DNA from: Kondoa subrosea
Lineage: Eukaryota
Reading direction: 5' to 3'
NCBI GenBank assembly: GCA_039545335.1
Contig: BCIN01000005.1
Coordinates: 772,641-836,640, forward strand
Length of the DNA stretch: 64,000 nt
The position numbers and the translations under genes are program-made. The stretch's first letter is position 1; each line of letters begins with the position of its first letter. Shown here piece after piece: positions 4,931-48,860 of this stretch. The notes beneath the pieces are model-generated. The model made no database searches, was not told the origin of the DNA, and saw nothing but the letters and a program-made list of their open reading frames with translations.

Positions 4931-5314
4931 TGTAAAATAGTATCTTCTTGTAGAGCAAGCACCGAAATCCCAACTCTTTCGAATCTCTGGTCTGCGCGTG
5001 CATTCATATACCTGACCAACATGATACCTCAGACTGCCGTTACCCTGCAATAGTAATACTTTCGCACAAGCTGTCGCGACATGCGTCTATTCGGTTTGGA
5101 CTGGATGTTTGGACAGGACAAGGCACAAACAACCGCGGAGAGCGTCTCTCATCAATCGCGAGCCATTGTAGAGCTTCAAACGTCCCCGCCGTAAGCATCT
5201 ATTGTGTTTCACTGATTTGCACGCTGAGTCCACTCCAGCAACAGCAACACTGCTATCCCTATCCCAGAGTCTTCATCAACTGCTTCTTTTCAAGCTGAAC
5301 CTATCCAGGACAGA

Positions 5315-7408
5315 ATGCCACATTCCAAGCGAGATCGTGACTTTCAACATCAACCTGCTGGTGTTTCTCTCGCATCAGATGCTAAATCTGACTCCTCTAC
5401 TGAGGAAGAAGACAATGCCTATGAATCTGAATACGGAGACGAGGGAGACGCCGACTCCCAACCTGGGAGTCGAGACGACCGGAGAAAATGCTCGAATTGT
5501 CGAAAGGTAGTTCTGGGAAGTATGTGTGCCGATCGATGTCCAGTATGTTACATGTACCATCGGCGTCATGCTCAAGAAAGGCCAGAACACATTCTGAAGC
5601 GAGGGAAATATACATCTGGCTTCAAGGTCGCCAGCCAATACGGGCCTAAAGTCGCTCCTTCTATCGCTGCTCCTGCTTACTCTTCTTCTACTATTCCAGC
5701 AGAGTCTTCGACGCCTGGATTAGCGCGTCAAGGTGTGAATGTGCGATCCGGCAATAAGCGAAAGAAAGGCTTAGCTCGTACAGAATCAGAAGATTCGAGT
5801 AAAGACGATGCTTCCAATGGCGGCAGCGGCTCTAGGCCATGCACGAATTGCGGTGGCACGGTAATTCAGAAGCGCAAAGAGGGAAACTGCAACGCCTGTT
5901 ACCAATACGAACGAAGAACTGGCAAAAGACGACCACCAGGTACTCGGCCTAGAGGTTCTGTAGCACAACGTCTAAAACAACTGCAAGCTGCTTCAGAAAG
6001 TCCTGTTCCTACTGCTTCTACCCTCGTTCTCAAACCCAAAATTACAATGAAGGCAATGGACTCTCAGCTCGGTGGCTTGCGACCAAGTCATTACAGGCCC
6101 AAACGGAAAAGGCAATCCGTGTCTGTTGATTCAGACTCAAGTGACAGCGAAACGTCTTTCGATGACTCTGATTCTTCTTTCTCCTCTACTTCGCCATCTG
6201 AAGACGATAGAGATGAAGGAGAAGAGGAAGGAGTGGAGACCGATGCGCCCATCTGCGCCAATTGCAACAAGAGAATCAGTCCTGGTACACCTCGTTCCGG
6301 CTTCTGTAATGCTTGTTATGATTGGCAGCGTTCTCATGCCGATCCCAGACCTACATATCTCTGGAGCACAACGAAGTTCTCTCGAGGCAGAGTCGATAGC
6401 AGACGAATTCGGCGCTCCAAGCAGCAGACCAAAACTGCATTGCAGATTATCAACTGCGACCACACACAAGCTGAACAACCTTCTGCTACTGAAGAGCTTC
6501 AAGTTTGCTCAAATTGCTGCAAAGGAATCTGGCCTGGCAAAGCTCGTTCTGGATTCTGCAACCCTTGCTATTCTTACCAATTGAGATTCTCGGGGGTGAT
6601 GAGACCTTCATCTCTGTGGAGCAACACCGAATTCTCTCGGGGGAAAATTCAGACAAGGCGGGCTCAGCGCTCGAAGCCAAAGTCAGCAGGAGAAGAAGCT
6701 GGATCTGATCAAGACTCTGAGGAGAAAGCGGCTGAATTGGAAGAGGCTCAAGTATGCACGAACTGTGAGAAAAAAATTTGGCCTGGACGAGCAAGAACAG
6801 GAAGATGCCAAGCTTGTTACAGCTATCTGAATTTTCATCAAGTCGAAAGACCTGATCGGTTATGGAGCGATTCAAAGACTTCACGTGGACGCTCTCGTAA
6901 CTCAAAGGCTGGTCGATCGACTTCTCGCAAGTCTCTTCCGTGTCGGAAAAGGCTCAAAGGCAAGTCAAGTGTGTTATTGGATGAGAAAGGATCGGAGAAT
7001 GATGCAGAAGCCTCGGTCAATTTATTTGCTCCCTGTGCTGCAGACCTTCCAGCACAGCTTTCCAACGCCATGCCTTCAAGATCAGCTTTCCCAGCACATG
7101 AAACGTCGCCCGCTGCAGAAGACAATGTTCTCCCGAAGCTTTCCCTGGAGGGACTTCCGCTGTTCTATGCTTCTTTACAGCATCTGAACCCTCTTTTCGG
7201 TCCAGCAATGGCTATGAAACTTTGGAAACTTGGTGTGAAGGTGGTCGAGGATTTGGTGTTTCTGAGAGACGAGGATATGCTCGATCTAACAGAATTTCAT
7301 AGGTGAGTTCAAACCCTGTTATAGCTTATACACCGTATTGACGAGCCCTACAGACGCTTGCTTCAAAACCACCTTGCTGAAATAGCGGACAGAAGAATGG
7401 CTCCTTGA
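5315..7408 (+). CDS. Protein with five GATA-like C-x2-C-x12/13-C-x2-C zinc fingers and a C-terminal SAM-like helical domain
   Basis: 663-aa ORF plus a short last exon after an intron at ~7303 (stop 7408). Five CxNC...CxxCY.(Y/W)...RP units separated by acidic/basic low-complexity linkers. Confidence 0.75.
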
Positions 7409-27345: not shown

Positions 27346-29835
27346 ATGATCAAACTCACTTCCCTGCTACTTCTCGCTGCGTATACCACTGCATCACCTC
27401 TGATCGCAAGACATGATTTACCTGATCCTACTGTCACAATCAAGAATGGTACCATTGTTGGATTGACGCAAGAACAATTCGGCCAAGAAATCTTTTTGAA
27501 CATTCCTTATGCTGATCCACCAAAAAGATTAGGTCAATCGGTACCAGTGTAAGTTGGCATTGCTTTGAATTAACTAATCGAGAATTTTATATTAATGAGC
27601 AATATTAGATCTAAATCATTTGGAACTCTTCAAGCAAAAGAATATGGTCCTCATTGTTGGTCTCGAGTGCCCGCTAGTGGATTTGATGACAATACTGGAT
27701 TCGAGAACTCGGAAGATTGCTTGTCGCTCAATATCATCAGACCTTAGTATGCGATTCTCTCTTGTTGCGGCATCACAGTAATTGGTGTTCTAATTCTTCT
27801 TTGAAGCGGTGTTTATGACGGTCAAGATCCTGTTCCTGTTGCGTTCTGGATTCATGGAGGTACTTTAGCGACCATTGCAAGGTCGCTTTTGACACTAACG
27901 GAACGATGTGTCAGGCGGATTAACTACAGGCGGAGCAGCTGATAAAAGATACAACGGCACAGCTTACGTCGCTGCAAGTGTTGCAAATGGAGAACCGATG
28001 ATTTTCGTCTCAATCAAGTGAGCTTGCTCTTTTACATTAAGTTTGACACTTGCTCACTTCTTACAGCTACCGTTTGGCCTCATTCGGATTCTTGGCTGGT
28101 AGTGAGCTTGCTGATGCCGGACTACTGAATCTGGGTAGTGAGTAGTCAGCAAGGCTGGAGGCGCTGAGCTGATGTGCGATCAATTAGTACATGATCAACG
28201 CCTTGCTTTGCATTGGGTACAAGAAAACATTGGAAAGTTTGGAGGGGATCCATCGTATACTTCTTCCACATGTTTGACCAGACAATAGCTAATTATTGAG
28301 CTACAGCAAAGTTACTATTCAAGGCGAATCAGCCGGCGGGTCATCGGTTCACGCTCACATCCTAGCTTACGGAGGACGCAACGATGGTCTCTTCCATCAA
28401 GGTATAATCGAAAGCGCTGGCCCATCTGGTCCATTCCCCAAACCTGCAGCAGCCGCTTATCAATCCACTTATAATGCTTTGTTGGTTAATACGACTTGTT
28501 CTTCCACTCAGGACGCGTCCTTCGCTGATCAGCTGTCTTGCGTACATTGATGCCTTCCCGAGGCGCTTGCCACGTGCTGATGCGTCCCGGTTTTAGATCC
28601 GTGGTCTCGATATTGGTACTTTCCGAAATGCTACTGCTAAAGGCTCGACCGGTATTGTGCAAGATGGTTCTTTCATCCAGATCGCATCGGCTTTCGAAGG
28701 TTACGGTTCTGGTAAATACGTTCACGTGCCTTTGATTGTGAGTTGCGATCGCGCACCGAAACAATTACTAAAATCTGCTGCAGGTTGGTAGCAATACTGA
28801 TGAAGGAAGAAGTTTCGCTCGCCAAGGTGCAAACACTACAGAACAAGTCATTGCCTTCTTAGGTCCAACAAATGGCTCAAATGACACTGCAAAAGCTTTA
28901 GCACGAATTTATCCTACTGATCCTGTTCTTGGCTGTCCTTGTGAGTCGTATCGACCACAAAGATAACTTCTTGTCATTCATGCTTGCAATAGTCGATACT
29001 GGATCTTATCAACTTTCGCCTTACCAAAATGGGGGCTACAGTACGCCAGGAAAATTGAACAAACAAGTTTCTGCTATTGTGGGTGATGAATCGATGCAAG
29101 CTGGTGCAAGATATTTAGGAAGGGAGATTGGCGGCGAGGTGCCTTTCTACAAATATCTGTCAGTACTTCAATCGATATTGATGTACAGCCCATTCATTGC
29201 GACTGCTTAGATTCGATCATGTGCCCTACGACATCAGCTACGGAGTCTCTGATTATGTCGGTCATTTCCTGGAGGTAAGACTATCTCTGTCCTGTCCTTG
29301 ATATGCCCTGAGCAGCAAATCAGGTCTCTTATGTGTTCAACTTGCAAAATAATGAGTGAGTTGCTACCTAGACGTGATTGTAGTATCTTATACTGTTTCA
29401 GCACTGCCTTCTGGAAAACGTCAGTCAGGAATCATTAATCGCTTGATGAATGCTGACGATACAATCAGGAATCACTTCACTGCAACTTATCTTGGACCCG
29501 GCGCTCCCATCACTGACAGAGGTCTAGGAGAATATATGTCTCGTTCTTTTGCCGCTTTCATCTCTACTGGAAACCCAAATAACGCGAATTGTAAGTCAAA
29601 TGCGACCTATCAGACTTTCGATTAAAATTTGTTTCAGTCTCATCCAAGATCGAATGGCCTAAGTATACTCGGGATTCACCCAAGCAGATGACTTGGCGCA
29701 GCAAAGGCAGTACGATTGAATCAGACGTATGGTGTGATGCTGTTTGCTGAGGCCTGCGCTCACTTATTACATTCTCTCTAGACTTACCGTCAAGAAGGCA
29801 TGGACTACATTATCAACAACATCTTCCTCGCTTGA
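27346..29835 (+). CDS. Secreted type-B carboxylesterase/lipase
   Basis: Signal peptide, FLNIPYA, SEDCLSLNI, WIHGG, nucleophile GESAG, GSNTDEG (acid), GHFLEV (His). Confidence 0.92.
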
Positions 29836-30047
29836 GGGTCTTTGTTCACCAATAGGGACACAAACACGCGTCAGCATGATATGATTTTGAACATAAGATA
29901 ATTGTAAAATAGCTCATAGTTTCCCTTGCTTATATGATTCAATCATTACTTGTCTATGCAGTCAGTGGAGTGAGGCTTGTATTGACAAGATCTCGCAAAA
30001 CTCATCTCGACTTTGTAACACTGTCCGACTTGGACCATGACTTTGCA

Positions 30048-31696
30048 ATGCCTGTCTACAAGGAGCTCGTAGCCACGACCAACGCAGCTTATGCTACGAC
30101 GGAGACGCGCCGTTGGATGGAATCTCTTCTCCAAGTTGGCCCTCGAGGGACGTCGCTGCAGCAAGTTGCTTGTCACAAATGCAGCAGAGTTCTGATCGAG
30201 CAATTGCTGATCGAAGGCTCTAATCCAGACTACGAAGTTATCTTTCACTATCTCTTTGCTTCTCCGGACCGCACGGACGTGCACCATTACCACTCTGGCC
30301 TTTGTTCCTTCTCAGCCGCTGGCGGAGTAGAAGAGAACGAGCAGCTAAGACAGCAGATCTGTGACGATATCAAGATGTTCAGACACATTCACGGAGGTAA
30401 GCTCTCCCAGGCTGTTAAGTCATAGCCATGCTCAGTCTCTATGCTTCGCCAGATCCTCGACCGAACTTACGCAACTCTCAGACTTTGCCATTCGTTCATC
30501 CAGCAGAAGGCAGTGTGCTGAATCAGGGAAGAAGAACCAGGTCGACTAAAACACCTTCGTCAGCTCGTTCCGATAGTGGCATTTCGCTTGGTAGAGGCTC
30601 TTCGGTCGGTAGCACTACACCTACTGCAATTCTGCCAGTCAAGAAGAAGCAGAGTATCAGGAAACGGAAGCGCGAGAAGACCATCGCCAAACAAGCAGCA
30701 GAAGGAACCACGACTCTGAATGTTGTTGCGAGCAAGAAACGCAGACCATCTCTTATCGCTGCGGTCGCCGAAAAGGAACCAGCTACCATTGCCGGAAGGA
30801 AGAGGGAGATCTCATCACCGTTGACTTCACTATCTCCTTCTCCTTTACCTTCTTCTGCTACGGCTGCCGAACCAACACAGCTTGCAAACGATATGTTGCC
30901 CAGACCCAACGTCGCTATACAACCATCTGAAGAGGCAGTTCGCTTTTCTCAAACTAATACACCATCCATTTCTCAAGTAAATCCCTTTCGTCCAGTAGAG
31001 AAAGAAGATGGGAAAACCAAAGAATCAGCCTTTTACATTGATGTTCCCCCTACTGTTCCTAGATCTGCTCCCTCTCGTACTCCGCCTCGACCTCAGCATG
31101 CAGCTATATCAGACTTTTTGATCACTCTAGGCATTCGCGCTTCTGAGAAAGTCGGTAAAGCATTGCAAGTTTTCGGTATCTTGGTCACAACACAAGTCTA
31201 ACATCAGATATGTAGATTTGATCTCGGTCTTCAATCTTCAGAGGATATGAGGTTGTTTGGAGTTGATCGCACTTTGTGGCCTTCGTTTGTTGAGAGAGGA
31301 GTGCAAGGCTTAGATCCCCTTGCACGAGCTCAGGTGATTGTTGCTGTTGATGGATGGCTGCAGAGTCATGTTTTCGTTCCGCAAGTAGTCGTCCAACCGG
31401 AGGAAGGCAGTATTGGAGAGTATTTGAACTCGTTGTCCTTGAAAGGTTTGGGAAACGAGGAAGGAGTTGTGCGATTCTTGTGAGCTCTTCCTCTGTTATC
31501 GTACAAGAGACTTGCTTGATGTGGATACAGGAAGCATCTTGGGTTTAAAGATGTCAAGCATTTCGTTACATTGGACGAGTCAGTCTGGACCGTCTTGCAG
31601 CAAACGCCAGAATGGAAAGACTATGCTATACCTACTTTCCTCAAGATCATCTTGGCAGAAGTGATCGAGCGAAGCAAGCCTGATTGGCAGTCGTGA
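30048..31696 (+). CDS. Hypothetical protein: N-terminal Cys/His motif, basic/Ser-Pro linker, two C-terminal SAM-like repeats
   Basis: Exons joined by introns at ~30397-30451, 31165-31215 (GC-AG) and ~31480-31529. The C-terminus is homologous to that of the downstream gene. Confidence 0.65.
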
Positions 31697-31912
31697 CATT
31701 GTTGGTTAATTTCAAGGCATTCGGGTGATTTGTCTGATGCTCCTGTGCGCCAATAGTATACCCAACATCTTTTATGTCTATGCTTGCGTACCATGATATA
31801 TAGCATGTATACAGCCTTATCGAAAGTCGTGCATTTGATTTGTTTCTCGCATGTCTTTCCGTACCAACGAGTCTTGTTCAATCATATCAGAAGAAGTGAT
31901 ACACGTAGCAAG

Positions 31913-33081
31913 ATGCCCAAACGAGCTCGCGCATCAACAGCTGAAGCACCTTGCCCGAACTGCACGACTGCAACGAATCCAGCGAACGCAGACACTAATG
32001 CACCCTTGGAATTGCAATGTGAAGGGTGTCAGACTGATTATCATTGGCCTTGTGTTTCCAAGCGATCGAGATTGAGTTTGAATAGAATAGAGCAAGTGAG
32101 TTGCCCGAAGACTATGTACTCGATATTGGCTCAATTCTGGTCCAGTGGTTTTGCGACCCTTGTCAGGACAAAGGCGGTAGGAAAGCTACTATCATCACAT
32201 CGTTCGTGTCGCCGAAGAGTCGCAAATCATCTTCCCAGCTCTCGCCTGTTGGAAGCCTCAGAGTAGAGAAGCGGAAGAAAACCCCTAATCGCCCAGTAGC
32301 GTCCACTAGCAGACTATCTCCCGCGCCAGATACACCTGTCCAGCAAGCAGCTGCGCCTGTATCGAACCGCTTGCCTTCCGCCGTTCCACCACTTCCACCG
32401 CGCGCAAGTAGCAACCACCAAGATGGCAGATCATCGACGGCCGCAATTGATATAGATGACGAAGAGGAGGAGGAAGAAGCAGCGAACCAGTCTTCCGTTG
32501 TTACTATACAAGATTTCTTGCGTGAATTGGATAGTAGCTTTTCTGGCGATATTACAAAGGCTATGTGATCTCTCTCTCTCTCTCTCTCTCCATGCAGCAG
32601 CTATATCCAACGAGAATTCAGCCAGGATAATGGACTTATCACGATTGATCATCTACTGCTGTTTAAAAACCAGCCTGAACTCTGGAAAGCATTCATTCTT
32701 TCTTCTCTTATGATACCTCTATCGCCCTTCAGAAAGCTCGTTTGATCGCCAAAGTGTCGTCGAAATTAGCAGAAATGGATTCTTCCGAAACCGAGGAAGA
32801 ACAGGCATCAGAATTGGCAGTGTATCTGAACAATCTACCGAAGGGATTGGGTCGAACTGAAGTAGTAGACTTCCTGTACGTGCTGACAAATGAAAGACGG
32901 GTTGAGCTCATGACCTCCCAGAAATGACCTTGGTTTTCAAGATCCGAAAGATCTGATCAATTTGGACAAAGACGTCTGGACTATCGTCAAGAGTGATCCG
33001 TCATTCACGTCTCATCAGCTTGCTCCGTATCTTAAGTTTGTTGCGGCGAATGTAATCGAGAAGAACTTTTCGGAATCGTAG
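31913..33081 (+). CDS. PHD-finger protein with two C-terminal SAM-like repeats (paralog of the upstream gene; two junctions uncertain)
   Basis: CPNC..LQCEGCQTDYHWPC..WFCDPC is a C4HC3 PHD finger. C-terminal FL|NDLGFQDPKDLINLDKDVWTIV matches the upstream gene. Confidence 0.7.
32569..32590. repeat. (TC)n microsatellite inside an intron
   Basis: About 11 TC units directly visible. Confidence 0.9.
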
Positions 33082-34142
33082 CTTCGGCAATATTTTCTGC
33101 AAAGACGAACTTTTGCTTTGTAGGCCGCTTGCAATCTGCTTGGCACTATATCTGTTGCTTTCGTCATAAGTGCTCTCAAAGTGCCCTTTGTTCTCGTTTC
33201 GTCTTGAATCGAACTTCTTCGCAACCGCTTTCCTTCTTTCCATATCTTGCTCGTAGCTCTCGATACTCTACGCTCTCCATTATTCAGCTTCCGATAAGCC
33301 TTTATGAGCCAATCAAGCCATGTCCATACTTGGAATGCTTCTGACCTTGAAGAATTGAGAGAATTACAGCAATCAGAGCGCATTCGACATGCCCATGGGG
33401 AGATCTTGACGTGATTAGCATTGTCTCGTTGCGAGTCTGTTCGTTGAAGCTCATCATCGTCATTCTAGTCCTATAGAAACGCAAAAGAAGGGCAATTTGG
33501 AAGCTCGACTGCTTTCTCATCAGAAGCAGCAGAGAGAGGAAAAGGAACATCAGCGCCGGCAATTTGCTCAAGACGTTGCGGACATTTCACGCCTTCACGT
33601 TAGACAGAATGCGTAAGTATACATGTTCAAACGTCAAAATAACCGCTTATGCCTTCCATAGTACTGTTGGACTGTTGGTCAAACGCCCAAGTATGGGTTC
33701 TATCGCAAGGTAAGCTCTTTGCACAACTACTTTTCCTAGGTTGTAAGTTGAATTCTGTATAATAATAGCGCAGCCCTAGTACACGGCGTAAATCGTGAGA
33801 TCACACGTGAAGAGGCAGAAAATGATCGGGCTGCCCGAGCTAGGACTAATACTGCATCTACCGAAGGATCTTCGAAGCGTGTCAAAGCTCAAGTAGCCTT
33901 AGATTTAGCGATTCGAAAGGTCGTTCCAGATGTGGCTCAAAATGTTTACCGGCAGGCAAGAGACAAGATACAGGGGAAGAAGTGAATAGGCTTAGAGAAT
34001 TCTCGTGCTGCGTCGCGAAAACATTCTCTTTCTGTAATGACTGTAGACACCCAAATACAATACTAAATGTAAGTATAAGGTTATTCGCATGCCTTTCTTT
34101 GAGTTCTAGGCGGGGATGGTCAGAGACCGCGGTAAGCCACAT

Positions 34143-36133
34143 TCAGGCATCACCCATCTTCTCTCCATGCGCGCTCTTCTGATCAAAGGAGTCCAATCGA
34201 ATCGACAGATCCGGAAGAGGCGCGGGTATCTGCTGTGATTGTGAAGGAGGGATAGCAAAAGCCGCATGACTCCGCTTGAAAGCGGAGCTTCCAGTGCCAG
34301 AAGAGGTCTGTTTTGAGAATGACGTGCGGCAAGTCTTGATCGACACCAACAAGAGAACTACACTGATAGGTCTGTCAATCTTTCATCGTCAGTACCGACT
34401 TTCATATCGTTGGCGAGACAATTTACGTGCCAAATCTAAAGAAACGGTTGAGCATTGGAAGCGAAAAGCAAAAGGCAGCACTAACATTCCATACACACTG
34501 CTGCAGCCAAGAATGAACACTTGACCATTTATTGCCTTAGCAAACAGAGTTCCTGCTCCCAAGCTGACGGGAATGAGCAGAACCGCAACATAGCACTACC
34601 AGCAACATAAATAGATTTCAGTATATCTGGACGGGAGCGACTCACGACACCGATAGCGCAACCTAAGGTAGCATTCACAATCCTTTGCCGACAGAGAGAA
34701 ATCAGGTTATCCAAGCTAGCTTTGAAAGCGCTGTCTTCATGAGATTGACGTGAAAAATTCTTATTGTTGCGTTGCATGATCAGAATCTGCTGTCGAAGAT
34801 CTTTGACAGTGTAAATAACCATGGGCATCCAAAACTAGACACAGATCGTTATGACTTGCAAATGATACGAGATCATCAGCTTACTACGAGAAGACAGCAG
34901 TTGATGATGAGTTCGAACGTGAAGATAACCTTTTAGAACAACTTTCGGCTTTGTCTAATGAAGACCTGAGAATGGACTGACTGCCGACCAAGTAGCCAAT
35001 CCTGCGAATTTCTCCTCTATATTCTGAATCGCGCCAGAAAGCGATTGAAGTGCGATGAGAGGTAATTTTCCCCCAGTCCAGCTAGCTGCCTGCGCATCGA
35101 CAGCAGCCAAAGCGCCCCGGAGTGCAACCATGGTTTCGCTATAGTGTCTATCGAGTGTTGTCGCAATGACCACTGCGGCGCTCAGATACACACAGGGCAG
35201 TATGCAAAATACGCCATTGAACAGCCAAGCGGGACAGATCTGAAATATTCAAAAAACATTTGGATGCGGCATGCTGAGCAGACATGGGTTCTCACATTCC
35301 GACCATCTTTAGCGACCACGCTTACAGCGCAAGACCAGATTTCGACTGGAGCAGCACCGTGAGCCTATTTCAATAGTATTTAAGGCCAACCTACGCCAGG
35401 CTTGGAAAGTTAAGAAGATGAGAACGATGATGATTAAAGCCAATGATTCGTTTGTTAGAACAGGGAAAGAGTACAGAGCCATTCTATTGTGGATAATTGA
35501 GATCGTGTAAGGCAATAGTGAACTCCAGAAACTTGCCTGGCACAGCTGACGATCGATAGAATGGAATATACAACGCCGAATAAGGCGAAGCCGACCGCTG
35601 ACACAGGATCAGACTGTACAAGAGATGTCAAAGACATCAAACACACCGACGTTGGGCCTGAGATGAGCGAGGATTCAGTCCAAGCGTCGAGCAAAGGGGA
35701 GATAGCGTACGTGAGATATCTCTGGCTGCGCGAGTTGCTGACTAGAGAGCGATAAGTTCAAGTGTCATGCATGTGTATGCAAAGTACTTACTTCGCATAA
35801 CCCAGAAGCGACCCTGTATGATGATGTTAGCTGAAAGTAGAGGGTCAGAAACTTTCAGACTCACACTCTTGACACGAAGACCGATGGTACACGCATGGCA
35901 GACCAATGAGATGACATTTAAGCCGGCCGACGCCCAAAGAATAGCTTGATAGGCTGGTGTGCGGATGTTTGGAATCAACGAGCGCATAGCTAGACCGAGA
36001 TATTCGTAAGGGTTACTAGTGTGACTGATGAGTCATGCATAACAAGAGACTGAGAAACCACTCACACATCGCTTGGTAGTGCTAATACCGACGCAGCCAA
36101 AGCGTTGATTTTGTCTTCAGATATCAGAGGCAT
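34143..36133 (-). CDS. Orphan multi-pass (~7 TM) membrane protein, tandem copy A
   Basis: Starts MPLISEDKINALAASVLALPSD; contains QILIMQRNNKNFSRQSHEDSAFKASLDNLISLCRQRIVNA; ends LPDLSIRLDSFDQKS. Confidence 0.75.
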
Positions 36134-36705: not shown

Positions 36706-38690
36706 CTACATGTTTCCACTCTTCCTCGAATCACCCTCGATGCTCTTTCGGTTCCACGAATCTAGCTGAATAGGCCAATCTGGCACATTCGTCTGAGGAG
36801 CATGCTCTGATCGCAGAGGTGAACTTGGTGCAGAAGCCTTGTAACTTCGCTTGGAGGTTGTGCTGGACGCATTCTTTTGCATCGGCATGCGCGAGGTCTT
36901 GATAGAGACACTCAGAAGTACGATGCTAATAGGTCTGTAGGGAAACATAGTTAGCCGAGTACTAGGCTGAGAAAGATTACTTGCGTGCCCAATCTATACA
37001 AAACAATCAGTATTTAGGCAGGATAGTTGAAACTTAACGAACACTGCGTAGATGAGGCCACTGAGCAGACGAGAATAGACGTTCGCAAATGAGAAAGATA
37101 ATGCTAAAAAGAAGAAGAGGCTCACCTGCCAAGGATGAATGCCTGCCCATTCGCAGGTTGCCGGAACATAGTACCTGCTCCTAGTATGACAGGGATCAAC
37201 AGGACAGCAACGTAGCACTATCGTCCTATTTAGTCACGCCCTTCAACACGAGAGCAGCTGCTCACAATGCCAATGGTGCAACCTAATGAGGCGTTCAGGA
37301 TGCGTTGTCGACAAAGGGAGATCAAATTGTCCAAGCTCGCTTTGAAAGCGCTGTCTTCTTGGGATTGATGTGAGAAGTTTTTGTTATTGCGTTGCATCAT
37401 CAGAATCTGCTGTCGAAGATCTTTTACGGTGACGACGACGAGGGGCAGCCAGATCTAAGGTTCCAAGATGAGTCAGGGCCATTGCAAGGAATCGAACTGA
37501 CCGCCAGGAGAAAGCAATTAATGATCAGTTCAAAGGTGCAAATCAGCTGAAAGCTCATGAGCCTAGTCGTTGCACACAAAATAAACGCACCTCAGCCCAT
37601 TTAGATAGTTCCTTGAAGTTGACCTCGATTGTCTGCAATGCCTTGGAAAGGCCTTGAAGCGCAATCGCAGGCAGTTTTCCACCAGTCCAACCGGATGCAG
37701 CTGTATCGACTCCTTCCAAAGCATCTCGTATGGCAGAGATGGTACCGCTGTAGGCATTGTTGAGCGTTATCGCAATTACGATTGCTCCAACTAGGTAGAT
37801 GATCGGAAGAGTGGTGAAAATGCCATTGAAGAGCCAAGCGGGACATATCTGTAATTATTTGCTGACATCGGTGCAAGTCGTGCGATGGCTGAATTCTGCT
37901 CACATTGCGATTCTCTTTTGCGCAAACACTAACAGCGCAGGACCAGATCTCCACTGCATAAAGACGTAAGCATGTGCTCGATCACCCAGTATCGGACTTA
38001 CTCCAAGCCTGACAGGTCAAGAACAGGAGCACGATAATAATGCAGATGAGCAGATCGTTCTTGAGTTCAGGAAAGGCGTAGAGAGCCATCCTGTGTACCC
38101 GCGTCAACATAAAGCATAGTATACGATCGAATTGTATTACCTAGCGTTGCTCACTATAGCTATAGCGGAGTATATAATGCCAAATACCGCAAAATTGACG
38201 GCAACATTTGGTCTGCTGAAGATCTGAGTATTTCAGATTGTGCAAGGGAGATGCAACCTTACGTCAAGTATTTTTGGTTGCGGGAATTGCTGACTGATAA
38301 CGCTCGAACATCAGATATCTGCGACACAGCCATAAGATTTCGCGCATACATCGCATGACCCAGAAACGACCCTGCACAGATAAGCTCCGTGGAAGTCTCG
38401 CAAAACTCTTCGACATACTGCTTTGAGCCGGAAGATAATCGTCCCAATGTGACAGACAAGGGCAACCGAATTCAGTGCAGCAGCAGTCCAAAGTAGAGCA
38501 GAGAAGACTGGTGTACGCAAAAGTGGAAGGAAAGAGCGCATCGCTTGTCCAAGGTACTGATACGGATTGCTATAAATTCTGACACATCAGTCTGAGCGTG
38601 AGCGGGAAGAGAGCGGACTTACACATCTGCTGGTAACGCCAAAACTTGACCAGCCAGGGCTGCAACCTTGTCTGGAGTTATGAACGACAT
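36706..38690 (-). CDS. Orphan multi-pass (~7 TM) membrane protein, tandem copy B
   Basis: Starts MSFITPDKVAALAGQVLALPAD; same SAFKASLDNLISLCRQR block at ~37300-37420; ends VPDWPIQLDSWNRKS. Confidence 0.75.
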
Positions 38691-39566: not shown

Positions 39567-41572
39567 TTACAAATCGCTTCCAATCTCGGCATTCATGGTA
39601 CTGCTCTTGTGATCCCATCGATCGAGTTGAATGGACAAATCAGGCAATTGCGGTGTCCCATTAGCTCCATATTTGGCTTGGGAATTCGACGTTGATGAAG
39701 ACATTCCTTGACTGCGCTTAGATGCTGAGCTGGTGAAATGCTTTTGAGCTGGCGTTAGACATGTCTTGATCGATACCCATAGAAGAACCATGCTGATCGG
39801 GCTATTATTTGTGAAGGTCAGGCACGGAGTGATGAGGTGAAGCGAAAAAGGCTTACGTTCCCAAGCTAAAGCAAGGATCAGTATAGCAGCGGAAATGAAG
39901 ATGAGAATGACTAACATGGCATAGATTGCAGCAGATCCGCAGATGAAAGCCTGGCCCGTCAGAGGCTTAGCAAACATTGATCCAGCACCCACTGACATAG
40001 CCGATCAGAATAGCGGGAGAAGCAAGATAGAAAACTTACAGATCACAGGTATCAGTAGCACAGCAACGTAGCACTGACAATATTGCTGAGTCTAGCCAAT
40101 AATAGCTCAGAAGCTCGACTTACGAATCCAATGACGCAACCTAGCGAAGCATTCACAATGCGCTGTCGGCAAAGGGAAATCAAATTGTCTAAGCTGGCTT
40201 TGAAAGCGCTGTCTTCGTGGGATTTTCGAGAAAAGTTCTTGCTGTTTCGCTGCATAATCAGGATCTGATGGCGAAGATCCTTGACAGTAAAGATGACCAG
40301 TGGTAACCAGATCTATCGATTCATGTTGAGTCAGGGTTGATCAGCATGCGATAGGCTTACCGCAAGGAGACAGCAATTAACGACGAGCTCAAAGTTGCAG
40401 ATTATCTGCCAATATGATTGTATCAGCAAGAACATCAAATCCTAGATCAGAAAACCACTTACACCTGACCACTTAGACAGCTTTTCAAAATTCGTCTCTA
40501 TAGTCTGAAGCGAACCAGCAAGCGATTGTAATGCGCTAAGAGGTATTTTTCCACCAGTCCAGCTGGCTGCTTGTTGATCGACCCCTTCCAGAGCATTTCT
40601 GATTGAAGCCATTGTTGTACTGTAGGTTTGATCCAGCTTGACTCCAATAACTATTGCAGCCGCTAGATAGATGCACGGAAGTGTAGTGAATATAGCATTG
40701 AAGAGCCAGGCTGGACAGATCTGGATCGTGGATGAGCGTCAAGGTACATTTTCAAGCAGAACTCGTTACTCACATTACGACCATCTTTAGCTACTACACT
40801 AACAGCACAAGACCAGATCTCGACTAAAAAAGCTGTTTGAGCCTAGTCTTCTCTGTCTCATCAGAGTATGGACCTACTCCAAGCTTGGCAAGTCAAAAAG
40901 AGAAGTACAATAATGATTGTGACGAGAGAGTTGTTCGTTAGTTTCGGGAAAGAGTAGAGAGCCATTCTATCGTCACCTCGTCAGCTTCAGCTGAAAGGAG
41001 TCGCTATATGACTCACCTGGCGCTGCTGACAATTGCAATTGCAGAGTACAAAATTCCGAATAGAGCAAAACCAACAGCAACATTGGGCCTGCACCAGGGA
41101 ATGAGTTCCTCAGCCTTGACTTGTAGAATGAGATAGCTCACGTTAGGTATTTCTGGTGCCGAGAATTACTGACTTCAAGGTGGATTTGAGTCCTGGGCCT
41201 TTGTGGGGGCTGAATGACGCCGACTTACTTCGCATAATCCAGCATTTACCCTTTGATATCAAATCCATTCAGCGCAGAACAACTCGTCGGTTTTTCTAAC
41301 GCTTACCGTCTTGATACGAATCGCTATCGTTCCCAAGTGACATATCAGAGCTATGCCATTGAATGCAGCAAAAGTCCACATGAGAGTGATGTAGACTGGG
41401 GTACCAATGACTGGAATAAATGATCGCATGCCCGCTGCAAGGAATTGATAAGGGTTACTGTATACGCATCAGCCTCATCCGAAGATGCAACCACAAAGAC
41501 TCACACATCGCTCGGTAAGGCTAGCACTTGACTTGCTAATGATGCGATTTTCTCTGGTGGTATCAATGGCAT
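39567..41572 (-). CDS. Orphan multi-pass (~7 TM) membrane protein, tandem copy C
   Basis: Starts MPLIPPEKIASLASQVLALPSD; MQRNSKNFSRKSHEDSAFKASLDNLISLCRQR; ends LPDLSIQLDRWDHKS. Confidence 0.75.
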
Positions 41573-43131: not shown

Positions 43132-46100
43132 ATGCATTCCCAAAGACCCAATCAGAATGGGCAGACGCTGCAGAGGGGAACATACCCAGCTCCACTCCAA
43201 CAGCAGCAGCAGCGTTTCCAAGGAAACCAAGCTCATATTCAGCAAATGCAAGCTCAAGCTATGAGCTCAGGATTGTCCCAGTCGGGTCCAGCTTCAGCTC
43301 AAAGCTATGCTCAACAGCAGCCCTTGTCGCAAAGTATGGGCTTGTCCAGCTCCGGCGGGTTAGGCACCTCGTATGTAAACATCCGCTCTGCATAATTCAC
43401 CAATTTTAACTTGAGCTCTTCTCTTCTCTTCTTCCTTTCCTTCTCTTCTATCTATTCGTATTGGATGTGCAGCCTTGTCTCGAGCCTACCGCCCAATTCT
43501 TTTCCTCTACTTCCGCCCGAATTGCCTGCACCCGGTCAATCGCATCAGAATCAAGCTCAAATGCAGTCTATCCTCAATTTACATCCTGCTCTATTACACA
43601 GACTCGCTAAAGCAAACAACACACCAGACCAAAAAACTCTTGTCCATAACGAGCGGGTCGACGCTTACCTTCCATCTATGCAATTACCTCCTCCTAGTCC
43701 ATCAGATGAACGTTGGATGGGATCTGCAAATACAGCAAGTCATGCTGGAATTCCTCATTTACTAAATCAGATGTTCAGTCCTCATACTTCTGGTATTTTG
43801 GCTATCGCTCAAGATCCAATCGCTCCTCCTTTTCAACCAATTTATGGATCAATGGAAGAATGGGTATCGAATGAAGTTCGATTTATGGCAGCAAACAGTC
43901 AAAATTCAGATCCTCATTCAATGAGTATAGTTGCTTCCCAATTGAAAGCTTGGCAAACGGAAAAACAAGAAGTAGAAGTCTCGAAAGCTGTTTTGGATGC
44001 AAAAGGAACTGCAGTGAATTTAGCAGCTGCAGCTGCTGTACAGAAAAGAGCAAGACAGAACTCGGTTGGGAATCAGAATGGAAGTTCACCTATTTCACCT
44101 AATGCAGCTGGTCTTAATTCTCCTGTTGATTTATCTGCCTATGCTGAGCATTACAAGATGGAATTGAACGCTCATGCTCAGGGTTATTATTCGCAATTGC
44201 ATCGAGAAGCGCTCAAGAGATTAATGGAAGCGGAGCAAGTGTCCATTCAAGGAATAGCTGGACCCTCGAATCAACCTGAACCAGCACCAGATGCGAGCAA
44301 ACTGGTTCGAGCTTCTGCTGTTGCGGCATTAACGGCAAATGTACTGGCCGCACAAGATATGGCTGTCGCTGCTGGTCAAACATTAGCAAGTATGGGTGTC
44401 GAAGTACCTTCCGTCAGCGCTCTGATTCCTTCGCCTGGTCTGCAACAAGTCCCACCCAACCAAAGTATGAGACGCTACAGCGGCACTTCAGGCACACCTA
44501 CTGCTTCTTCTTCCTCTGCTGGGCTTGTCCCACCAATGAATTCTACTATGCCATATACTTCTGCAAATCAAGTAGCTGTCTCTGCGGCATTAGGATCAGC
44601 AGATACGGAGATTGTTCGAGTAGTGGACGAAGTTCAGCAAAATAATGGATGCACTATCGAAGCGAGGGATTATCTACTTTCCTATGCCCACGGGGCCTAT
44701 TCCTCAGGAGATCAAGCTACAGATCTTTTACCTCTTCTACATATGCTCGATAACTTGCACCCTGGTCATTGCCCTACATTACTTTTACTCAGCTGTGTCT
44801 ATTATTCGAAAGGCATCAAGGGCGACTTAGGTCCGGTGGAGAGCAAGAATATGCTTCATCTGAGTATTGCTATGAATCAGAAGATTTTAGAAAGGGATTC
44901 TACATATGTCAGTGCATACCAATGACAATTAGCCTCAGGCTGATTGTCATGCGGGCTTTTTGACTGACAGGTTGAAGCCTTGAGCAACATTGGTACAACT
45001 TGCCGAGCTCTGGGTGAAAGTGCCAAAGCAGAGATTTTCTGGCGAAAGGCCATCGACATCAGACCACATTATTTCGATTCCGTGGAAAATTTGCGTGTGT
45101 AGATCTGTTTGTTCAGTGTTCGACAGTCCTCTGATTCTTGGACAAAGTTGGCGTCCTTTGTCACCCTCAAGGTGGTTCTGCAGAAGGTGCTGGATCGCCA
45201 CGATATGCGGAAGCTCTACAATTATGCGACTTTGTCGAAGGCGCAATATTCGGGCCAGATGCTGTTCGACCTTATATTCTACCCAAAGAAATTCCGCCCC
45301 ATCATATTCATCGTCTGCAAAACCTTTTCTACGCTAAAGGCAATCTTCAAGCTGCTTTGGGAAAACCACTCGAAGCAAAGAACGACTATGAGAAAGGATT
45401 AGAAATCGTTTTTTCCACTGGTCAAGCTAATCAGGCGGACGTCAAACCTGTCAAGTACACAGTATCAGAACTGCTTGTCGCTACTGTTCTGGTTGGATTC
45501 GTCCTGATGGCAGGACAAGCACCAGGAACCGAACAAGAAAGTCGAGCATTGTCTGTACTTGGAGAGCTAGGTATCGCAAGACCGGGACCTGGTCAACCTC
45601 TCCCACTCGTCGACTATCTTCGTGTAGCTCAAAAGAATGGACCAAAAGTACTGCAATTGCTTCATCAGCATGGAAACCAATTCATACCTCTTGTTCTACT
45701 CCTGCCGACTGTATTAACGGAGATGAGGAGACTACTTTTCGTTGGATCGGAGAACCAGCTTCCTGTTCTCTACGGCGCATCTAAACATTCGACAGCACGG
45801 AAGCATAGTCCGGGCAAGACCACAATTGAACAAACTTGTCAGACTACAAGCACTCTTCTCCTGACATTAGCCAAATGCTATCAAGAAGCTGCACTCTCGC
45901 CTCAGGGTCCTGTCGCGCGAGAATTGATCGCAAAGGGCACTCCTGCTCATTCATCTATCCTTTTACCTCTGTATTATCTTGCGCTGGCTCTTCATCCCTC
46001 TCCTTCAACATACAATAATCTTGGCATATTATTGTCTACGGTGCCCGCTACCGTTACTATTACTACTTTGAAAGGCTTAGAAATTGCTACTGGTCAAACT

Positions 46101-48860
46101 TTAGCAATGGCCTTCTACAAAGCTGGACTCGAGAAAGATCCGAAGCATCCTCATCTCTATACCAATTTGGGCTCTCTGTTCAAAGACATGGGTCAACTTC
46201 CGCATGCAATTCACATGTATCAAAAGGCAGTCGAGTGTAATCCTGAATTCGATGTCGCTCTAGCAAATTTGGCCAACGCCATTAAAGATCAAGGTCAAGT
46301 TCAAGAATCGATTCCTTGGTATTACAAAGCTGTGAAGATTAACCCAAATTTTCCTGAAGCTGTCTGCGGTCTTGTCAATGCTCTTGGCGGCGTTTGCGAT
46401 TGGCATGGTCGAGGAGGTGTTGATGACGATGTAGCCGTCGGAAATAAGAACGAGATCCTCGATCTGAGCAATCCTGCAGAGGCAGAAATGGCTAGAAATG
46501 GCGTAGGTCATGTTATTTCGTACCGAATTCTCACTGATTGCACGATGCCAGTGGATGCCTCATATCAAGACTCTCGTCTGCAATCAGCTCATTGCTGGAT
46601 CACTCTTCGGACGCGGCATTATGAGGTCTACTGCTCCTGGTGAAAACTGGATGCGAATGATCGCGGCCGCTTTGGACATCCAGCCTGCCGCTCTCACGAA
46701 GCTTGCACCCTCGTACTATAAGATCATCTTATTACTTACCTCTGGCCAACCACCTACTACCATTAATGAAGGTGGTACTCTCATTCGACTCATAGAGCGC
46801 CTCATGCGCCGTATACAACGACGATGGTATGTCAGCTCATATGGAAAAGTGGTCCAATCCATACAACAATACCCTCGCATTCTTGTCGATCAACAGTCAT
46901 CGAAAGTTTTCGCTCGACCCATGCTACCAGCTACCCTTGCTCAACCCAATGTACCAACTGTTTTGCCCTTCCATACATTTACATACCCTCTCACAGCTCG
47001 ACAAACTCGACTTATATCACATCGTAATGCACTCCGGATCTCCCATTCTACACTCGTTCAGCCATGGATTCCCCATCATGTGTATCCTCCTCCCCCGCCT
47101 CCTGCTTCTCGCCTCAAGATTGGCTATGTTTCTTCTGATTTCAATAATCATCCTCTTGCACATCTCATGCAGTCCGTCTTTGGAATGCACGATCTTGATC
47201 GCTTCGAAATATATTGCTATGCTACTACACCTTCAGATGAATCAGAATACCGTAGAAAGATTTCTTCCGAAGCGCAGCACTTTACCGACGTTTCTGCTTG
47301 GTCGAATCAGCAAATCGTTGAGCGGATCCTATTAGACGGCATTCACATTTTAGTCAACATGTAAGTCGTTGCCTTAGATTGAGAGTATTAAGCTCAAAGT
47401 TCTTCAAGGAACGGCTACACCAAAGGTGCACGGAACGAGATCTTTGCTGCTCGGTCAGTTGTGGCTTGGATGCTGGATCTGTGTTCTCAATCATGCGCAT
47501 ATAGACCATGTCCGGTTCAGATACAGCAACTTATGGGTTTTGCTGGCACCTTGGCTAGCGGTTTCTGCGATTGGATTATAGCAGATCAAACCATAATTCC
47601 ACTAGAAACCGTTTCAGGTGAAGTCTGGCGCAAGCGTATTCAAGCTGGCACACCGCTTGCTAGCACAGCGACAGGCTTTGAAGGCGATCTCGATCCAGAA
47701 GAAGAGTCTGAGTCTTGGAGCTACACCGAGAAGATAGCTTATGTGCCCAAAACATACTTTGTGACCGATCACAAACAAGGCTTCAGGGACGAGCTGCCGC
47801 AACAAATATCAGACAGACCTTCTGCTTGGGCTATTGACGAGCAGAGAAGATGGCAAATGCGTCAAGAGCTTTTCCCTCAATGCCGAGATGATACGATTAT
47901 ATTTTGCTGCTTGAATCAGCTTTACAAGGTAATTTGTCATCACCCAGTATTACTCGATTGTGCCTGAGAGATGTATCAATAGATCGATCCTCTCATATTC
48001 AAGACTTGGCTCAATATTCTTGCGAGAGTGCCAAATTCGATACTGTGGCTGTTACGCTTTCCCGCACCCGGAGAAGCACATCTGAAGGAAACAGCAACTC
48101 TTTGGGCTGGCGAAGAAGTCGCCGCGAGAGTAATGTTCACCGATGTGTCACCTGTGAGTATAATTCAATCGCTAGAGACCGATTGACTAATCCTCTGCTC
48201 GACAGAAACAATTACATATTGCTAGAGGTCGAATTGGTGATCTTTTTCTAGATTCTACAGAGGTGCGGTCGCGCGTAAGCCGGATAAGGCTGATTGATCA
48301 TACTTACTGATCTATGAGATTAGGTCGGCGGCCATACCACTAGCGCTGAGTGAGTACATTGGCCGTATTATCGTATGACCTCTGACTCTGGTATCAGCGT
48401 CCTCTGGTCTGGAACGCCTGTGCTTACTTTCCCACGGCACAAGCATAAACTCTGTTCGAGAGTAGCAGCAAGTATAGCAAATGCCACAGGCTTTGGACAT
48501 CAGATGGTGGTTTCCAGCATAGAAGAATATGAAAACCGAGCTGTCCAGTTGGCAAACAGCTTGACTTATACATCAGATCGAGTCGGATCTGGCGAATTGT
48601 ATGATTTGAGGAGAAATCTATTCTTGTCAAGAGAAGAGTCTGCACTATTTGATACGCTTCAATGGACGAGAAATGCAGAGGTTCGTCGTGTGGAAGCTTC
48701 AGTTAGATTGTGCCTGAGGCAGTCCATGATGAAACAGCATGCATATGAAGAGATTTGGCGCCGTTGGGTTGAAGGAACTGAATTTGAGGACTCGATGGAA
48801 TATGCCAATCTAGAAGCAACAGCGGCTGAGAAGAGATCTGGCTGTATATTTTTGGGCTAG
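43132..48860 (+). CDS. OGT: O-GlcNAc transferase (GT41, OGT/SEC-like) with Q-rich N-terminus and TPRs
   Basis: TPRs (TYNNLGILL, YTNLGSLFKDMG, ALANLANAIKDQG), KIGYVSSDFNNHPLAHLM, NGYTKGARNEIFA, NQLYKIDP, LWLLRFPA, HTT..DVLWSGTP, SRVAAS. Confidence 0.93.

Follow-up and report, generated by a model that had tools for sequence, protein, structure and literature searches.

PHD fingers (PF00628) generally bind histone H3 tails, and they are found, for example, in small fungal chromatin adaptors that carry the finger at the N-terminus. SAM domains (SAM_1 PF00536, SAM_2 PF07647) are known as the polymerising modules of Polyhomeotic and Scm, and tandem helical units of the WY/LWY type occur in the RxLR effectors of oomycetes (5zc3). 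A further situation is that of orphan tandem duplicates in which one of the two copies decays. Here we describe two genes, A and B, located on a 64,000-nucleotide stretch of contig BCIN01000005.1 (the window), which we compare with all of these systems. Like orphan tandem duplicates, A and B are adjacent and on the same strand; one copy is intact, the reading frame of the other is broken and one of its introns is aberrant, and just one outside relative was found in the exon-3 search described below. Unlike plain decaying duplicates, gene B has a complete zinc-finger pattern in addition, its repeat 2 is still open and conserved, and the gene may not be dead. We consider it probable that A and B form a tandem, lineage-restricted gene pair of a fungus-like eukaryote in which A is intact, while B is decaying, truncated or remodelled.

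The two genes share a C-terminal tail that consists of two repeats, each of them split by an intron. When the spliced models were compared by blastp, repeat 2, which makes up the last ~70 aa, was identical at 30 of 68 positions (44%, E 7e-16), and repeat 1 at 15 of 53 positions (28%, E 0.017). No third copy of the tail was found in the window, where all other tblastn matches had an E of at least 0.76. All four repeat-splitting introns are in phase 2 and are placed directly after the '..KAL/..KAI' and '..RFL/..DFL' codons. From these comparisons we take genes A and B to be real and related. A preliminary description of the locus had proposed a tandem paralogue pair with a common C-terminal module and phase-2 introns at equivalent positions; both points are borne out by the spliced models, and the peptides quoted there are all present in the sequence where they had been placed.

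Gene A is the intact copy. Its spliced open reading frame (ORF) of 1491 nt encodes 496 aa without an internal stop and its splice signals are well formed; judged by its sequence, the gene is probably functional. The protein starts with a 116-aa unclassified N-terminus, continues with a linker of ~215 aa, for which no Pfam family was found, and ends with the C-terminal module of ~165 aa in two parts. For the N-terminus we obtained no Pfam match, no PDB match beyond chance or very weak ones and no usable match in the ESM Atlas, which was searched with exon 3 and exon 1 (best 0.80). The proposal that a PHD remnant is present at this position found no support, with 697 of 2000 shuffles reaching the score observed against the PHD finger. 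Intron 2 has a GC donor, and its CTAAC branch motif is situated 13 nt 5' of the TAG acceptor. The sole GT alternative would be an intron of 39 nt whose donor is GTTTTC and whose acceptor comes only four bases past CTAAC; we prefer the GC-AG model. PMC7072748 names GC-AG as the main non-canonical splice pair and gives GT-AG as 98.7% of fungal introns. Automatic gene callers may miss the GC-AG intron of gene A.

Gene B encodes a complete C4HC3 ligand set in its spliced N-terminus, C14-x2-C17-x18-C36-x2-C39-x4-H44-x2-C47-x16-C64-x2-C67, as had been claimed for this gene. Trp62 is found two residues before the seventh ligand, ahead of the final Cys pair. The spacing of the ligands is canonical for PHD fingers. 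Weak PDB matches of the N-terminus were to PHD chains of TAF3 and EBS (E 0.37-1.2). The finger thus has the ligand spacing and the Trp of the known PHD-finger proteins. In contrast to these, it is followed by the unclassified helical module, and the Pfam scan gave no PHD-companion domain. The linker resembles that of gene A, being long and Ser/Pro/Lys-rich with a basic cluster, EKRKK.

The second half of gene B departs from gene A. Within repeat 1, gene B is homologous to gene A and the outside relative through ..LFKNQPELWKAFI up to 32697, after which the homology is taken up again by SYDTSIALQKARLIAKVSSKL.. at 32706 in another frame. In addition, the 33-nt intron 2 is filled by a (CT)n microsatellite and is atypically short: among the GTRAGY..YTRAY..YAG intron candidates, defined by this pattern over the whole window, 48 of 69 measure 45-59 nt and only 1 of 69 is shorter than 40 nt. 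Independently assembled Logan contigs from two runs (depth 142 and 53) show no difference from the window in 30000-32448 and 32600-33100, 32449-32599 having been skipped in this comparison as a repeat. Because the contigs of both runs match the window at the break, the frame break in gene B is no slip of the window's assembly. The preliminary description had implied two intact repeats in both genes. This holds for gene A, but not for repeat 1 of gene B with its frame break and its 33-nt intron.

The family appears to be nearly orphan and is apparently unannotated, as far as the sequence searches reach. When gene A exon 3, the query of our exhaustive search, was compared with 1,835,955,588 representative proteins, we detected one relative at E<=0.001 (P0001, 94 aa, E 2.6e-9), which is about 47-49% identical to the exon and belongs to a cluster of two members without names. 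Both the ORF of this relative and gene A exon 3 terminate at a '..VVDF' boundary, consistent with a conserved intron. A word-based search with exon 3 among longer proteins gave 112 candidates, none of them at E<=0.01, and word-based searches for near relatives with exon 4 and exon 1 returned nothing. A metagenome locus (L001) was rejected as a chance match: only the search pattern agrees (38 aa, 39%), and it is found beside an unrelated 211-aa ORF. The coordinates of all features of the two genes are compiled in Table 1.

Table 1. Features of genes A and B in window coordinates.
Feature	Position	Strand	Description
Gene A	30048-31696	+	exons 30048-30396, 30453-31164, 31216-31479, 31531-31696; stop TGA 31694-31696
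Gene A intron 1	30397-30452	+	56 nt, GTAAGC..CAG, phase 1
Gene A linker	30453-31099	+	Ser/Pro/Lys-rich, probably disordered; basic clusters KKKQSIRKRKREK (30641-30679) and SKKRR (30731-30745)
Gene A repeat 1 (aa 333-417)	31100-31405	+	split by intron 2
Gene A intron 2 (inside repeat 1)	31165-31215	+	51 nt, GC-AG, GCAAGT..CTAAC..TAG, phase 2
Gene A repeat 2 (aa 418-496)	31406-31693	+	split by intron 3
Gene A intron 3 (inside repeat 2)	31480-31530	+	51 nt, GTGAGC..CAG, phase 2
Gene B	31913-33081	+	exons 31913-32095, 32146-32564, 32598-32875 (frame break), 32922-33081; stop TAG 33079-33081 if the frame is restored
Gene B PHD-type C4HC3 zinc-finger pattern (C14..C67)	31952-32163	+	spliced translation, split by intron 1
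Gene B intron 1	32096-32145	+	50 nt, phase 0, within the PHD pattern
Gene B acidic run DIDDEEEEEEAA	32449-32484	+	encoded by a GAN-rich run
Gene B repeat 1, degenerate	32500-32804	+	28% identical to repeat 1 of gene A
Gene B intron 2	32565-32597	+	33 nt, GTGATC(TC)n..CATGCAG, phase 2, without CTRAY branch motif
Gene B frame break	32698-32705	+	within a run of pyrimidines; the homology with gene A passes from ..LWKAFI to SYDTSIALQKARLIAKV.. in another frame
Gene B premature TGA	32743-32745	+	ends the product after 249 aa if there is no further splicing
Gene B repeat 2	32805-33078	+	open; split by intron 3
Gene B intron 3	32876-32921	+	46 nt, GTACGT..CAG, phase 2

We picture the pair as follows. 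Gene B would be a decaying copy, or one truncated after 249 aa, or one remodelled by alternative splicing in which repeat 1 is partly skipped. Both proteins may be nuclear adaptors, as their composition suggests; the basic clusters (KKKQSIRKRKREK in A, EKRKK in B) are putative nuclear localisation signals. By analogy, the PHD finger of gene B could dock on the histone H3 tail, and the ~165-aa all-helical tail is predicted to offer a protein-protein contact surface. That A and B co-assemble is a weakened idea, because the module of gene B is interrupted by the frame break. When a complex of three exon-encoded parts of gene A was predicted, the outcome was 'no answer' (score 0.01, mark 0.34), which weighs neither way. 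What we describe is mainly an annotation result, namely an unannotated, almost orphan gene pair with a probably decaying second copy. The finding is modest and has no bearing on a long-standing open question.

Several points weigh against this picture. The PHD family PF00628 scores only 16.4 bits (E 0.0095), below the 24-bit cutoff, on gene B exon 1 taken alone, while the final Cys pair is encoded in exon 2. For exons 3 and 4, AlphaFold2 gives helices only, and these with low confidence (pLDDT 56.5 and 57.5). The nuclear location, the histone binding and the protein contact are drawn from composition and from the general behaviour of PHD fingers. The two sequencing runs derive from one sample, possibly the source of the window itself, and are not strain-independent. 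All exon junctions of A and B are predictions made from the sequence, and several fates are possible for gene B. We found 13 splice solutions that keep gene B open, 12 with a GC donor, including a 44-nt GC-AG intron at 32689-32732, and one GT-AG intron of 56 nt at 32740-32795. A further listing contains 29 GT-AG open-frame solutions, one of them the 125-nt intron 32565-32689, which starts from the conserved donor. Gene B may in this way yield a full-length but altered protein.

In a less probable alternative, gene B would be functional and full length, with the break spliced out by one of the three introns just named, leaving repeat 1 shortened and repeat 2 intact. With such combinations the ORF runs without a break to 33081, repeat 2 of gene B is still open at 44% identity to A, and the pyrimidine-rich stretch 32690-32732 closes with CAG, as the 3' end of an intron would. 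Every such solution, however, removes or frame-shifts residues alignable with gene A and with the outside relative (LF..LW..F, or IALQKARLIAKV). GCATTC and GTTTGA make poor donors, and 125 nt falls outside the 45-59 nt range that is typical of the window. Repeat 1 of gene B no longer resembles that of gene A, whatever the product of B.

The preliminary description had further proposed that a domain duplication was followed by the gene duplication, and the evidence on this point is divided. At the profile level, repeat 1 and repeat 2 were not distinguishable from chance (hhalign P 0.14; 111 of 500 column shuffles score at least as high). Four pairwise tests were made, in which the comparison of A repeat 1 with B repeat 2 was the sole one to beat shuffles (2 of 2000 reach the score); for A repeat 1 with A repeat 2 the count was 204 of 2000, and for the outside relative 478 of 2000 with A repeat 2 and 897 of 2000 with B repeat 2. 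The position and phase of the introns and a shared motif speak for the proposal. All four introns fall directly before x(D/H)LG(L/F), where repeat 1 of gene B has 8 extra residues, and a local motif L|xDLG(L/F)Q is common to the repeats. For the exon-encoded second halves, AlphaFold2 predicts a helix, a helix and a long helix in both cases (H8-16, H20-27, H34-50 versus H16-24, H26-29, H35-48). Taken together, the intron phase, the motif and the similar helix pattern point towards an internal duplication, which we regard as plausible and suggestive only.

It is unlikely, in our view, that both genes are intact and that each carries two polymerising five-helix SAM-like domains, so that a PHD reader and an oligomeriser would co-assemble on chromatin. 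The likeness of the tail to SAM domains comes from the preliminary description and is not the result of a test. The units are compatible with SAM domains in size (~70-85 aa), and they are predicted to be all-helical with roughly five helices: the exon-level AlphaFold2 models suggest three helices for the second half, with a further one where the next repeat begins. The PHD pattern of gene B, the phase-2 introns at matching places and the one pairwise test that beats shuffles (2 of 2000) agree with such an arrangement as well. Against it stand the frame break in repeat 1 of gene B and the lack of any sequence or profile match in the exon-level searches. All our fold and family tests used contiguous translations of single exons, and since each repeat is split by an intron these queries are half-domains, which makes the negatives weak. 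With this limit, no SAM family was seen in Pfam at E<=1 (9 exon translations, each only part of a unit and hence of low sensitivity), and of three PDB profile searches at E<=10 one returned 6 chains, all unrelated and without a SAM chain among them, and the other two returned none. With the low-confidence model of exon 3, Foldseek gave no match at E<=0.001. Reading the repeats through retained introns met 3 stops. A search of the literature for fungal proteins that combine PHD and SAM turned up nothing relevant. A SAM-like fold, as proposed earlier, is therefore not what the half-domain searches in Pfam, PDB profiles and single-exon AlphaFold2 indicate.

We hold it to be a little more doubtful still that the tail is an undescribed, lineage-restricted helical family for homo- or hetero-oligomerisation, born from an internal duplication with two phase-2 introns and possibly SAM-like, which would couple the splicing-rescued PHD reader B to the PHD-less A. 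Should the tail turn out to be a new domain for oligomerisation, linked to a PHD finger, this would be a small lineage-specific addition to fungal chromatin biology, and, if true, a neat case of domain and then gene duplication that can be traced by intron phase.

A relation of the helical units to WY/LWY repeats, the helical bundles of RxLR effectors in oomycetes, is a lead only and very improbable. It came from the exon-3 profile (31217-31477), whose best PDB match was 5zc3_B, 'RxLR effector', with E 0.027. Tandem helical units and a local LF-x5-W-x2-(F/Y)V motif are common to both, and the match rests on three stretches of this motif, in three repeat units of the effector, but each of these is insignificant alone (i-Evalue 160-1000), and the repeat-2 profiles are without any PDB match. 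Unlike these effectors, genes A and B contain introns, show no evident secretion signal and reside among housekeeping genes in a fungus-like genome, that is in another type of organism. Least credible is the notion that the ORFs are not genes and that their similarities arose by chance: most of the sequence is without a Pfam family, but the E of 7e-16 between the copies, a 260-codon open frame in exon 2, the outside relative at E 2.6e-9 and the consistent splice signals make it very unlikely already.

We return to the gene pair with an intact A and a decaying, truncated or remodelled B for its genomic setting. The window is eukaryotic, intron-dense DNA, and we infer a compact fungal-type genome. 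Its stop-to-stop ORFs include, according to Pfam, fragments of a DEAD-box helicase, a carboxylesterase, an SF1 helicase, a mitochondrial carrier and an O-GlcNAc-transferase-like gene; genes A and B are located among housekeeping genes of a fungus-like genome. The upstream neighbour (27574-29835, plus strand) is a carboxylesterase-family gene split into many short exons (PF00135 fragments), and it ends ~210 nt 5' of the ATG of gene A. Only 216 nt separate A from B, with a TATATAG motif near 31798. Rfam, a repeat finder and Tandem Repeats Finder returned nothing relevant.

Downstream of gene B, on the minus strand between 34100 and 40000, stop-to-stop ORFs resemble one another. One group of mutually similar ORFs consists of 34143-34382, 36706-36993 and 39567-40004, a second of 34955-35248 and 37555-37854, and in total we count three such sets. 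The ORFs are hydrophobic and membrane-protein-like, suggesting a second tandem paralogue array, and they coincide with a strong purine skew of the plus strand over 34-42 kb. Among the ORFs of at least 55 aa submitted from 33.0-38.6 kb, no Pfam match at E<=0.001 was obtained. Two further observations concern the plus strand. At 5228-7303 we found an uninterrupted ORF of 692 aa, which has no Pfam family at E<=1e-5. The O-GlcNAc transferase-like gene at 45135-48857 begins with TPR repeats, which are followed by three GT41 fragments with short introns between them.

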